From: a phage
Assembly (NCBI GenBank): GCA_036611895.1
Contig: GCA_036611895.1_4766.1
Length of the DNA stretch: 64,000 nucleotides
Direction: 5' to 3' (one strand)
The notes beneath the pieces were generated by a model, which was given only the letters and a program-made list of their open reading frames with translations, did not search any database and was not told the origin of the DNA. Positions 1,535 through 4,591 of the stretch are shown here, piece by piece. Both the position numbers and the translations under genes were made by a program. Numbering within the stretch: position 1 is the stretch's first letter; each line of letters opens with the position of its first letter.

Positions 1535-1618
1535 ATCAAAGAGTACACTAGCACTGGGCCACGCATAAGTGGGCATCGGCCTTCCTCCCACAGCTAATCT
1601 ACTAATGTACTCATTGAT
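1535..1618. repeat. inverted-repeat-flanked unit A
   Basis: ATCAAAGAGTACACTA at 1535-1550 and TAATGTACTCATTGAT at 1603-1618; arms are 12/13 complementary and enclose about 55 nt. Confidence 0.6.
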
Positions 1619-1791
1619 TGGCCCTCCGTTTCTAATACATGGACGGAGGAACTCCACGGTCGTTTGATAATCAGGACGACTCACTCCTGACTGACGCTTG
1701 GCTTATTAGGCTGCCATCAGAACAACATCATCGTTTGCATTTATCTTTGTGGTCAGTTTCTAAAAAGTCCGCAAAGTCGCTTACGAAAACT

Positions 1792-1892
1792 ATCAAAGAG
1801 TACACTAAGCACAGGTAGCTACCCTGCCGTCTTCTCCACCTACACCGGCTACAGTGTAAACCTCCGCACGTTAGCTTAATGTACTCATTGAT
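1792..1892. repeat. inverted-repeat-flanked unit B, second copy of unit A flanks
   Basis: Same 16-nt flank sequences repeated at 1792-1807 and 1877-1892 around a different approx. 70-nt interior. Confidence 0.6.
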
Positions 1893-1911
1893 AGGATGTC
1901 AGTAGGTCGGG

Positions 1912-1981
1912 GGCTGGATTCGAACCAGCGAAAGAAGTAGCGACCGTCTGCACATGCCTACGTGCTACCCCGACCATTATA
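1912..1981 (-). tRNA. tRNA-like gene, isotype undetermined
   Basis: Perfect 7-bp acceptor stem (GTCGGGG/CCCCGAC), D-stem GCAC/GTGC and T-arm GCTGG-TTCGAAT-CCAGC; anticodon arm is imperfect with a short variable region. Confidence 0.5.
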
Positions 1982-2394
1982 ATAGGGGAGGGAGGACGAG
2001 TCCCTCTTTACCCTATGATTTAGTTTGCATGTAAGACCTAACAATTCGATGCTGTAGGTAGCTATGCTATCCGACATTTAACCCAGCCCATATAGGGGCT
2101 TATGTGATTAAAATGCTCAACATTGAGCGGTTAGTTGATAAGGGATCTGAAGCCTTATCCCAAAGATACTAACCTTTGGGATATAGCCTAAGATTCAGAA
2201 ATGGCCCCTATAGGGAGAGGCCATTGATTAACCCGAATGTTGCTTTACATTTTCTGTGATAACCCATTCTTAAAATAGTCTACCTGACGGATGGGCATAA
2301 ACCCTAGCGTCAGTGCCATACGGCAAAGATTAAGTTAAGAAAGGTTATGATAGGAGTTCCTATCTCAAAGGATTCTAACAGAACCCTTCACGAT

Positions 2395-2566
2395 ATTAAC
2401 TACTCTTTTTTAATGCTTCTACTTCACCATCTTTATACCAAACATATGGTACTAAGATTTTGCAGCCTTCTGATTCAATGTGAAATGCTTTCTTTCCTTC
2501 AACGGGTTCTCCCCCCATGAAAGAACTAACCTTTCCATTGAACCAGTGAATAGTAAATTTGTTCAT
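2395..2566 (-). CDS. small hypothetical protein (56 aa)
   Basis: ATG-initiated ORF MNKFTIHWFNG... in an otherwise ORF-free stretch; weak RBS; below the track cutoff. Confidence 0.25.
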
Positions 2567-2800
2567 ATTAGTCTCAATTGAACCAATGGACTTCGGAGAG
2601 TATTAAAGTCCACTGGTTCGGTTGTTGTTGTTACTCTGGCGGCTTGTCACCACCGTGTTTACCACTGCATTTCCACAGGATAATGACAGTGATGATAAAA
2701 GCTATGTATGGAGCCGACACGTCTATAATCCTGACCAGTAGTAGCATCAGGACTATAAACACTACCACACCTAGCAGCAGATTCTGAGCCACCTACCAGA

Positions 2801-3238
2801 TTAACTACGTTTAAGGCCAGCGAACAGTGAAGGCTTAGTAGCAGGTTTCTCTGCTGGTTCTTCGGCCTTAACCTCTTCCTGCACAACTTCTTCTTGTGCT
2901 TCTGGTTCAGCTACTGCTTCTTCAGGATCCGGCGTAGAACTCTCGTTCTGACCACCAGTAGAGGTCTGGGTTTCTTCTACCTTTACCTCTTCAACAGCTT
3001 CTTCCGGCTCTGGTTCTACCGGACGGTGTTTAGCTTCTTGAGGATTCTTACGAGAACGGCGAGTTTTCTTCTCTACTCCCACGGGTGGAGTGTCTTCGTG
3101 AACCTCTTCGTTAATACCAACGGAGGCAGTACCATCTGCATTGATGACAATATTAATGTCACCAGCAAGATTGATTTGATCATCAACATAAGCCTGTACA
3201 GCAGCTTCTACTTCGGACTGGTTCAAAATGATTTGCAT
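2801..3238 (-). CDS. hypothetical acidic protein
   Basis: 145-aa ORF with a strongly acidic, Glu/Pro-rich C-terminal half; 1-nt gap to the next gene. Confidence 0.5.
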   Translation of the reverse strand: MQIILNQSEVEAAVQAYVDDQINLAGDINIVINADGTASVGINEEVHEDTPPVGVEKKTRRSRKNPQEAKHRPVEPEPEEAVEEVKVEETQTSTGGQNESSTPDPEEAVAEPEAQEEVVQEEVKAEEPAEKPATKPSLFAGLKRS

Positions 3239-3239
3239 A

Positions 3240-3794
3240 TTACGCCTTTAATAACTTAATAAGGTTCTGGAAAGCTGGTAGATTTACGCCAGCATGGATT
3301 GCACCGATTGCATCAGCTAAGTGCTCATTCTTATTCAGAAGTTTGCCCTTCTTATCGGTGAGCCAGTTGGCTTCAGGATAGATGGCATGAGCAGCACGAA
3401 TCATCGTGTCTTTGGATGCAGTTTTATCACCGACCAGTGCAAGTTTGTTTTCAATTGGGGATACTTCAAAGATTGGACAACCCAATGCACGAAATGCACC
3501 GATTAATCCTACGCATACACCATAGGATTTCATACCGTTAGCAGACTGAGAGCCTACTGGTACTTCTACGAATACTGCTTTAGCAGATCGTAACCATTCC
3601 TCACAACCAAGAAACAAATCGTAAGCGGCTTGTATATCTTTGGAGTTGGTTCGAACTTGTTTGTTGTGGTCAACTTCAGTTTGAACCAGTTTAAGTTCGA
3701 CCTGCTCGAAGACGCCGGACTCAATGTCCAGCATCCCACGAGCTAAACCCCAATTGCGGAGACTAATGTCTGCACCAACAATTGGGATTTTCAT
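3240..3794 (-). CDS. RuvC-like Holliday junction resolvase
   Basis: N-terminal IVGADIS, mid VFVEVP and C-terminal EHLADAIGAIHAG resemble the RuvC catalytic D, E and HxADA motifs. Confidence 0.55.
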   Translation of the reverse strand: MKIPIVGADISLRNWGLARGMLDIESGVFEQVELKLVQTEVDHNKQVRTNSKDIQAAYDLFLGCEEWLRSAKAVFVEVPVGSQSANGMKSYGVCVGLIGAFRALGCPIFEVSPIENKLALVGDKTASKDTMIRAAHAIYPEANWLTDKKGKLLNKNEHLADAIGAIHAGVNLPAFQNLIKLLKA

Positions 3795-4591
3795 TAACGT
3801 TTACCGAACAGAGATTTACCACCAGCAGGAGTAGTACCCGTACCAGCACCTGGTTTAGGAGGTAAGCCACCTTTACCATTACCACCAGCAGAACTCTTAG
3901 TCTTGTCACGAGTTTTGCCTTTGTTCTTTTCCAGCCATGCTGCATAGAATACAGCCAGTTCTGGGGTCAGCTCTTTTTCAGCCTTCTCTGCTTCCTGAGC
4001 CTCGACGACTGTGACCAGCAGTTCCGGGTGAAACACTTTCTGAATCTCGTTTACTTCACGGGTTTCACCGGAGTCAACGTAGCCGTTGTCACCTTTAACC
4101 TGCTTGGATTCCAGAACTTTTTCCAGAGCGAAGGTAACAGTTTGACCAACCAGTTCAACTGGAACCATGACAGATTTATTAACTTCTGCTTTAGCGTCGT
4201 AGTCATAAACTTTGACAATCTTCTCTTCGAAGTCTGCTTCAGGCAGTTCAGTACCGGTAGCCATCAGCATCATGTCGTTAATGACAGTGTAGCCAGGCAA
4301 GAAGTATTCTTTACCGTTCTTCTCGTAAGTCGGCTTGTTGCCTTTAGCATTACCAGAAGTGAAGTACACCTGAGCACGGAACTCACCGGCAGGTACGCCA
4401 TCAGAGTTTTTCAGGTCTTCAATGATTAACTGCATCCAGTCTGCACCAGAGTCAGCTTTACCTACGTAAGCTACTTTTACAGTACCGGTGTAGATATCGG
4501 ATTCTTTTGCACCGAAGCCACCACCACCAAGGGAGTCTTTTACAGCTTCAACGTTTTTGGTTTTTTCTTTCAGATTACTGAACAATGACAT
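3794..4591 (-). CDS. single-stranded DNA-binding protein-like (N4 SSB-like by size and position)
   Basis: 265-aa ORF with a Gly/Pro-rich flexible C-terminal tail, located downstream of the replication genes; assignment by synteny. Confidence 0.4.
   Translation of the reverse strand: MSLFSNLKEKTKNVEAVKDSLGGGGFGAKESDIYTGTVKVAYVGKADSGADWMQLIIEDLKNSDGVPAGEFRAQVYFTSGNAKGNKPTYEKNGKEYFLPGYTVINDMMLMATGTELPEADFEEKIVKVYDYDAKAEVNKSVMVPVELVGQTVTFALEKVLESKQVKGDNGYVDSGETREVNEIQKVFHPELLVTVVEAQEAEKAEKELTPELAVFYAAWLEKNKGKTRDKTKSSAGGNGKGGLPPKPGAGTGTTPAGGKSLFGKR

Follow-up and report, generated by a model that had tools for sequence, protein, structure and literature searches.

Stalked RNA modules with exchangeable cargo border a tag-encoding RNA in the tRNA region of an N4-like Escherichia coli phage

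Two small structured RNAs in the transfer RNA (tRNA) region of a 64,000-nucleotide (nt) phage sequence (GenBank assembly GCA_036611895.1, contig GCA_036611895.1_4766.1; the whole stretch is called the window below) are each closed by a stem of about 20 base pairs (bp). Together they bracket an RNA core that encodes a peptide tag and resembles transfer-messenger RNA (tmRNA). The window comes from a Gamaleyavirus, an N4-like podophage that infects E. coli. From comparison of the two modules, unit A (1530-1623) and unit B (1790-1894), with their homologues, we propose, with a probability of roughly 55%, that their double-stranded stems (stalks) serve to process and insulate the members of a polycistronic small-RNA array, probably as substrates of host RNase III. 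The units would then be structured processing or spacer RNAs of phage tRNA arrays, in a new form. Features of the window described here lie on the minus strand, and their coordinates descend in the direction of transcription.

The units are built on four 16-nt arms, which stand where a preliminary description had placed them. ATCAAAGAGTACACTA occurs at 1535-1550 and 1792-1807, and TAATGTACTCATTGAT at 1603-1618 and 1877-1892; neither is found anywhere else in the 64 kb. The gaps between paired arms are 52 nt in unit A and 69 nt in unit B. When up to three mismatches were allowed on both strands of the window, the arm motif recovered the four sites and two chance matches with three mismatches. 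The match count of the first arm was equalled in none of 100 shuffles, and that of the second arm (4) in 2 of 100. On the minus strand the arms read 5'-AUCAAUGAGUACAUUA and UAGUGUACUCUUUGAU-3', and 15 of their 16 positions pair (14 Watson-Crick and one U.G), the remaining position being a U.U mismatch. The pairing noticed earlier was therefore real, though 12 of 13 positions understated it. With unit-specific extensions, the stem of unit B reaches 20 pairs (1894-1874 with 1810-1790) and that of unit A 22 pairs (1623-1600 with 1553-1530). The 5' arm of unit B, CUAUCAAUGAGUACAUUAAGC, spans 1874-1894 and includes the 16-mer at 1877-1892; its 3' arm, GCUUAGUGUACUCUUUGAUAG, spans 1790-1810 and includes 1792-1807. 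The corresponding arms of unit A occupy 1600-1623 (5', including 1603-1618) and 1530-1553 (3', including 1535-1550). The 16-mers are thus the two strands of stems that close two small minus-strand RNAs, and the two stems are paralogous.

The preliminary description had read the other strand. The U.G wobble can form only in minus-strand RNA, and the minimum free energy (MFE) was lower on the minus strand for unit A (-37.0 versus -27.7 kcal/mol on the plus strand) and for unit B (-43.6 versus -33.4 kcal/mol). The U.G pair and this MFE difference led us to favor minus-strand RNA. Folding, one of the checks suggested with that description, returned the stalk helices in both units (z = -3.21 for A and -4.15 for B). 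As the arm cores are identical, cross pairs between the units can also form (1528-1550 with 1877-1899, and 1603-1618 with 1792-1807). When the 381-nt region was folded as a whole, the MFE structure contained two local hairpins and the centroid was a nested four-arm fold. We favor the local hairpins because some relatives carry a single unit and because the stem extensions are unit specific.

Thirty loci from relatives were fetched for comparison, and homologous modules were present in N4-like, Kuravirus, Chaseviridae, T1-like, P1-like and Vi01-like phages. The flanks of these modules covary. In a set of 15 arm pairs, which represent two arm types, standard pairs made up 93.3% of cells, compared with 30-51% when the partner strand was slid, although this percentage is inflated by ascertainment, the units having been located by a stem search. 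Both sides had changed in 11 of 18 pairs, and the covariation score of 0.626 was reached by none of 500 shuffles. Individual replacements illustrate the pattern. The arms of phages nithesis and ST4 (CUAUCGGAGAGUGCAUUG / CAGUGCACUCCCCGAUAG) differ from those of the window by four double changes from A-U to G-C, with A.C at the position where the window has U.U. At the stem base of PhAPEC5, CUAUC...GAUAG has become CCAUC...GAUGG. Five positions at the top of the Pollock stalk have changed with pairing preserved, and in UE-M3 and PBM-3 two A-to-G changes yield G.U pairs.

Compensatory changes between units of the same type, which share flanks and cargo, are cleaner evidence. Nine units carrying the cargo of unit A (cargo A) were taken from Gamaleyavirus, Kaypoctavirus, Kuravirus and Chaseviridae. 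Nearly all arm positions are replaced in SSEM1 and Faunus, and 94.6% of cells in this set still pair. Fifteen of 29 pairs were compensatory, a count attained by none of 500 shuffles, and in the closing stem 13 of 20 pairs were compensatory. We read the stems as RNA-level helices under selection.

Two features of the stalk recur. The eighth column from the stem base holds a non-canonical pair in 12 of the 15 units, and the top of the stalk reads CAUUR/YAGUG with the U.G pair in 9 of 15. We considered whether this U.G pair mimics the G3:U70 determinant of alanyl-tRNA synthetase (AlaRS). We rejected this idea, as the helix continues above the U.G and the position is C-G or U-A in ST4, Pollock, UE-M3 and P1. 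This one stalk design bears no fewer than four kinds of cargo (A, B, C and D). The earlier suggestion of a conserved long stem around variable cargo is borne out by the compensatory change and by the number of cargo families; its extension to processing cassettes for small RNAs may also be right. The stalk is a chassis shared by many enterobacterial phages, with an exchangeable cargo drawn from a few conserved families.

Might the repeats act only as DNA, as terminal inverted repeats of a miniature mobile element or as recombination scars? The presence and absence of units is mosaic among phages that are about 90% identical, the arm cores of both units are identical, and the junctions of deletion variants lie inside the arms. 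U1G looks like a deletion between the two 3' arms of a window-like arrangement and VTCCBPA_322 like one between two 5' arms; because of these two apparent inter-arm deletions, we think the identical arm cores probably serve also as recombination points that reshuffle or delete modules. As a full explanation without RNA function, the DNA-level account is very improbable. It is contradicted by the many double compensatory changes that maintain the helix and by mismatches that are strand asymmetric (G.U on the minus strand is A.C on the plus strand). Neither target-site duplications nor direct repeats flank the units, and the neighboring stretches inspected carry no annotated gene for a transposase or an integrase.

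The enclosed sequences differ, as had been noted. Cargo A (1554-1599) is an H-type pseudoknot, in which stem S1 pairs GUGGG (1587-1591) with CCCAC (1569-1573) and stem S2 pairs GGCC (1578-1581) with GGCC (1557-1560). Among the nine cargo-A units, two of the five S1 pairs were compensatory; the predicted S2 was invariant save for one wobble, which agrees with the pseudoknot. Cargo A occurs in the window, VTCCBPA_322, PBM-3/UE-M3, phiG17, PhAPEC5, KP8, Kuravirus-like phages and Chaseviridae. A 52-nt query that excluded the arms matched 53 phage records at about 80-85% identity, spanning Gamaleyavirus, Klebsiella Kaypoctavirus, Kuravirus and Erwinia/Pantoea Chaseviridae. Three single-stranded blocks are invariant: GAUUAG, GGAGGAAGGCCGAUG and GUGGCCCAG. 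A small open reading frame (ORF) that follows a GGAGG in cargo A was dismissed, being broken in relatives by a 2-nt indel and by an AUG-to-AUA change.

Conservation of this kind invites the explanation that the cargo is a small aptamer-like RNA that sequesters or decoys a host factor, such as a defense or RNA-metabolism protein. The stalk would then be only a scaffold, and closeness to the tag RNA and the tRNAs would merely reflect a shared locus for small-RNA expression. Cargo A fits this, given that it keeps 80-85% identity over about 50 nt in four unrelated phage groups while its arms are almost fully replaced in SSEM1 and Faunus, that it retains invariant single-stranded blocks, and that in Kuravirus it is found alone beside ordinary genes. 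We nevertheless hold the idea to be quite unlikely as the whole account: it leaves unexplained why unrelated cargos share one stalk design, and no riboswitch, ribozyme or protein-binding family in Rfam was matched at E<=10.

Cargo B (1811-1873, 63 nt) forms a three-way junction that includes the hairpins ACACUGUAGCCGGUGU and CAGGGUAGCUACCUG. It was found in the window, Bp4, St11Ph5, U1G and Pollock, and its 25 phage records are N4-like without exception. Each of two helices contains one compensatory pair, and CAGG/CCUG has become CAAG/CUUG in Pollock. Cargo C is carried by VLCpiP4a and phiG17, and cargo D by nithesis and ST4.

The other proposal of the preliminary description, that the units are tRNA-like genes of a non-canonical kind, without a standard T loop, did not survive. 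It drew some plausibility from the odd tRNA-like genes that this tRNA region does hold (1975-1904, 1388-1322 and 1327-1215). ARAGORN found no gene and Rfam no tRNA-clan match within 1530-1623 or 1790-1894 at E<=10. The covariation-supported structures are a stalk with a pseudoknot (A) and a stalk with a three-way junction (B) and not a four-arm cloverleaf, and neither has an acceptor end, which leaves the proposal hardly credible. The Rfam scan suggested alongside it was likewise unproductive for the units. Neither matches a curated riboswitch, ribozyme, small-RNA or Y RNA family, and the only match touching a unit at E<=10 was a sub-threshold hit to RF04321. Unit B does lie next to the 3' side of a tRNA-like gene, as described, with the correction that the gene runs from 1975 to 1904 and unit B starts about 10 nt downstream. 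ARAGORN calls this gene tRNA-Ala(CGC), yet it falls below the Rfam tRNA thresholds. Its anticodon arm is degenerate, position 3-70 is U3-A70 and not G3:U70, and CCA is not encoded. In the Vi01-like phage KWBSE43-6, an element homologous to it (GGUCGGGKUAGCAC...) is located upstream of the tag RNA.

The RF04321 hit led into a reading frame between the units that had been overlooked, along with the full extent of the pairing. In a permissive scan this permuted-tmRNA model matched 1706-1840 with 29.6 bits (gathering score 47), reaching into unit B at its 5' end. The well-aligned part, AUAAAUGCAAACGAUGAUGUUGUUCUGAUGGCAGCCUAAUAA, comprises a GCA resume codon, a 10-codon tag and a double stop. The tag core is about 175 nt long (1620-1794). 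Its resume codon (1738-1736) is preceded by an A-rich stretch, and the tag ORF (1738-1709) encodes ANDDVVLMAA and ends in UAA UAA (1708-1703). Downstream are hairpin 1 (1690-1671), with a pseudoknot pairing 1677-1680 and 1659-1662, and hairpin 2 (1649-1623). The 5' block of the core pairs in cis with its own resume region.

The tag core (1794-1620) is widespread, with 72-97% identity in 395 phage records and at 567 places in E. coli plasmids. Its carriers include T1-like siphophages, Vi01-like Ackermannviridae, P1-like phage-plasmids, N4-like phages and Erwinia phage Faunus (Chaseviridae), and it was annotated in none of the records inspected. Comparison of 23 members revealed 11 distinct tags, every one of 10 codons followed by UAA, and both alternative frames contain stops. 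Single-nucleotide codon differences numbered 91 at the third position versus 18 at the first and 12 at the second, a strong third-position bias. Even the final Ala-Ala codons vary (GCA GCC, GCG GCG and GCU GCU). By this substitution pattern, the tag reading frame, with its resume codon and its stop in frame, is under coding selection; this holds for the tag core and not for the units. Hairpin 1 has three compensatory pairs. A pseudoknot flanks the tag as in tmRNA; its pairing between the hairpin-1 loop and downstream sequence appears to switch among classes (GUCG/CGAC, CCGA/UCGG, CCAG/CUGG and UCGA/UCGA), as judged by eye on misaligned loops with no formal count.

The tag RNA therefore shares with tmRNA (ssrA; RF00023, RF01849-51 and RF04321) the GCA after an A-rich stretch, the 10-codon tag, the UAA UAA and the downstream pseudoknot. 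Its tag, ANDDVVLMAA, can be compared with ANDENYALAA of E. coli. In contrast to tmRNA, it has no tRNA-like domain in or beside the element: neither ARAGORN nor Rfam found a G3:U70 acceptor stem, a T arm or a CCA end in the units or the tag core, and ARAGORN reported no tmRNA in any locus. The complete genome of one T1-like carrier, KpV2811, contains no tRNA and no tRNA-clan match at all. RF00023 gave 10.3 bits and relatives scored 24-27 bits. Rfam tmRNA scores are thus without exception far short of the gathering score (25-30 bits versus 47). Because it fails both the tRNA-like-domain test and the Rfam threshold, we do not class the tag RNA as a tmRNA.

Several other ideas about the tag core were set aside. 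A recent copy of host ssrA is disfavored, as local alignment was no better than for shuffled sequences. Action of the 5' block as an antisense or decoy of host tmRNA had marginal significance (0.17 and 0.017); the block's best site on host tmRNA is the resume region, a by-product of its cis pairing with the homologous region of the phage RNA. The 'NCCA' after hairpin 2 is not a free acceptor end, since its CCA pairs within the base of the stalk that follows and does not occur universally.

The units adjoin the tag core on both sides with a spacing of 0-1 nt. The last bases of the unit B 3' arm, GAUAG, are the first bases of tag RNA homologues that are driven by promoters (TTGACA-17-TAGATT in KpV2811 and Bas78, TATAGT in L205). 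Unit A starts where L205, a metagenomic minimal form with nothing but the 185-nt core between promoter-like site and terminator, places an intrinsic terminator hairpin. A unit lies beside the tag core in N4-like, T1-like, P1-like, Vi01-like and Chaseviridae phages, and Faunus has the tag core followed by a cargo-A unit, the same order as in the window. Borders with tRNAs show a similar arrangement. Units begin 2-10 nt past tRNA 3' ends in pSA186 (3103 to 3109 and 3611 to 3613), in VLCpiP4a and in the window (1904 to 1894), and units with type-3 arms start with the CCA of the preceding tRNA-like sequence, including one at window position 1327. By position, the stalks appear to stand at the borders of neighboring RNAs, and their design is common to several phage families.

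In KpV2811 (locus 1464-2124) the tag RNA, a long-stem unit and a 61-amino-acid ORF (MIQIQKIHDDYW...) lie within one promoter-to-terminator unit. Elsewhere in that phage (43203-43266), Rfam reports an int-alpA RNA above its gathering score (42.6 bits).

Such close apposition, recurring in five phage groups, raises the possibility that a single larger tmRNA-like molecule of the phage includes the units as integral domains. The stems would be helix 2 or closing helices and the pseudoknot cargo would correspond to tmRNA pseudoknots, with unit B, tag core and unit A jointly getting the tag translated or hindering host ribosome rescue. Permuted tmRNA genes indeed have a long stem enclosing about 100 nt ahead of the tag, the layout of RF04321 and of unit B here; a nested fold of the four arms can close the tag region; and the order of tag core and cargo-A unit recurs in Faunus. 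Even so, we consider this arrangement possible but unlikely, because the parts separate freely. The tag stands alone in L205, units occur without a tag in U1G, VTCCBPA_322, ev_rybdy8 and myPSH2311 (judged partly by a search that gave one place per record), and no tag was present within the 1.4-kb loci fetched for SU10 and SSEM1. Upstream of one and the same tag, the cargo can be A, B, C or D. In nithesis, the arms upstream of the tag are not complementary to those downstream. No cargo has a T loop, an acceptor end or a CCA, which, together with the exchangeability of cargo, also led us to reject the view that the units supply a permuted tmRNA with its tRNA-like domain. Models of tmRNA contain nothing that corresponds to the units.

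A bolder and rather improbable extension is that the stalked hairpins are working parts of a kind of phage RNA not described before, a tmRNA-like messenger module that lacks a tRNA-like domain. Such a module would have spread horizontally in at least five enterobacterial phage groups and would rewrite or exploit host ribosome-rescue tagging. Here the stalks would define the ends of the RNA or close a tmRNA-like ring, and the pseudoknot cap would recruit machinery.

We return to processing and insulation, probably with RNase III as the enzyme, as the preferred explanation. The proposed module is a stalk of about 20 bp with a non-canonical pair eight positions from the base, a conserved top and a cargo cap. 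Host RNase III would cut the stalks as it does in rRNA operons and T7 early RNA, and it is the most plausible enzyme because it is the sole double-strand-specific factor common to all hosts of these phages. Cleavage would separate neighboring RNAs and set the 3' side of the preceding tRNA or tRNA-like RNA. It would also set the 5' and 3' ends of the tag RNA, close to the ends produced by transcription start and terminator in other phages, and would free the capped upper hairpins as separate small RNAs. The conserved cargo, or cargo A at least, probably works by binding a factor of the host or of the phage.

The stalks resemble the RNase III substrates of E. coli, namely the leader-trailer stems of the rRNA operon and the R sites of T7 early RNA. 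Both are likewise about 20-22 bp long with local irregularity and are placed between functional RNAs of one transcript; the phage stalks, judged by position, may likewise lie at the borders of neighboring mature RNAs. The intramolecular helices of 20 and 22 pairs, kept by compensatory change, match the length of such stalks. They differ from rRNA operons, where the stalk encloses a functional RNA, in being local hairpins with their own conserved cap between functional RNAs. RNase III requires a helix of about 22 bp with paired, often G-C, positions between the cuts (PMC6212723), and the stalks (20-22 bp with paired G-C in the middle) are compatible with these requirements, a compatibility that is not specific.

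Several points weigh against this explanation, in addition to the ascertainment mentioned above. The nested four-arm pairing seen in the centroid is energetically competitive when the window is considered alone. The conserved stalk top and fixed mismatch are not known RNase III determinants and could equally mark another protein, and a processing stalk needs no conserved cargo of 50-105 nt. For none of these phages does the literature searched contain RNA end or cleavage data. The positive sequence specificity of RNase III is low, so that compatibility with it is weak evidence. Taken together, the conserved cargo and stalk top and the fixed mismatch point to a possible additional, specific partner of the modules.

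Other known RNAs offer partial parallels. Species 1 and 2 RNAs of phage T4 (rnaC and rnaD) are small structured non-tRNA RNAs of unknown function that are co-transcribed with phage tRNAs and released by processing. They are similar to the units by description, and they are not known to share a common stalk with exchangeable caps. Y RNAs of the YrlA type, some of them phage encoded, likewise combine a long conserved stem with a variable structured module. Unlike YrlA, the units lack the Ro-binding helix motif and the tRNA-like module, and the Rfam YrlA model has no match in the window. E. coli K-12 is not known to have the Rsr partner. Literature searches on phage tmRNA-like RNAs, small RNAs of N4-like phages and RNase III in phage tRNA clusters returned nothing comparable, although their coverage was incomplete and an earlier description elsewhere is possible.

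The more surprising element is the context of the units, a widespread tag RNA without a tRNA-like domain, whose borders the modules mark. If the tag RNA is translated, it raises the testable question of how trans-translation templates can be used. More broadly, the modules show the tRNA regions of many enterobacterial phages to be arrays of exchangeable structured RNAs on a common stalk. The conserved stalk with its fixed mismatch offers a handle for finding the host factor that processes or binds the modules, which are absent from Rfam, unannotated in the GenBank records inspected and sometimes overlaid by spurious 'hypothetical protein' calls.

The closest relatives of the window are ECBP1, PD38 and Bp4, with about 94% identity over the region. 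Scans of IMG/VR and of a metagenome collection used DNA patterns that were too loose and returned mostly chance matches; the real ones were L164, L222, L238 and L205. In the window, the genes of the region are on the minus strand and include tRNAs at 688-762 and 768-843 besides the tRNA-like gene at 1904-1975. No convincing protein gene was found from about 2370 down to 550, and ORFs across 1450-2000 are at most 71 amino acids long and without conservation. This stretch is a densely packed array of tRNAs, tRNA-like RNAs, other structured RNAs and the tmRNA-like tag RNA. A strong terminator (569-548) closes the region, and the array is probably transcribed as a polycistronic unit.

Other members of the array are also unusual. 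The tRNA at 768-843 has an abnormal anticodon loop (ARAGORN reports 'tRNA-???' with a two-base anticodon call; Rfam gives 42 bits), and it is annotated in relatives as tRNA-OTHER, Thr or Cys. A tRNA-like sequence at 1388-1322 was missed by both ARAGORN and Rfam. It combines a 7-bp acceptor stem (UCCGGUG/CGCCGGA) with a T arm (UCUGGUUCGAGUCCAGA) and encodes a terminal ACCA, and most of the Gamaleyavirus relatives compared share the block 1456-1323 at 98-100% identity (95% in nithesis). At 1327-1215, a 27-bp stem with 89% complementarity prolongs the acceptor stem of another tRNA-like sequence, in which a T arm (UUAGGUUCGAAUCCUAA) is present and the D arm is apparently missing. Apart from a swapped strand order, the arms of this stem are similar to those of the other stalks, and the 5' arm begins at the CCA of the preceding tRNA-like sequence.

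Further long-range stems of 15-17 pairs occur at 2169-2333, 1005-1120 and 578-671, the first of which recurs with the same arms in almost every Gamaleyavirus relative examined. P1-like phage-plasmids have, in their tRNA region, three or four units with long stems of 21-27 bp, whose arms are related (pSA186_4, 2659-3724; P1, 1660-2428), and two of these units begin 2-6 nt past tRNA-Thr and tRNA-Ser. Deposited records such as that of nithesis (1862-3831) contain short 'hypothetical protein' coding sequences on both strands that overlap the tag RNA and the hairpin units; these coding sequences are probably spurious.

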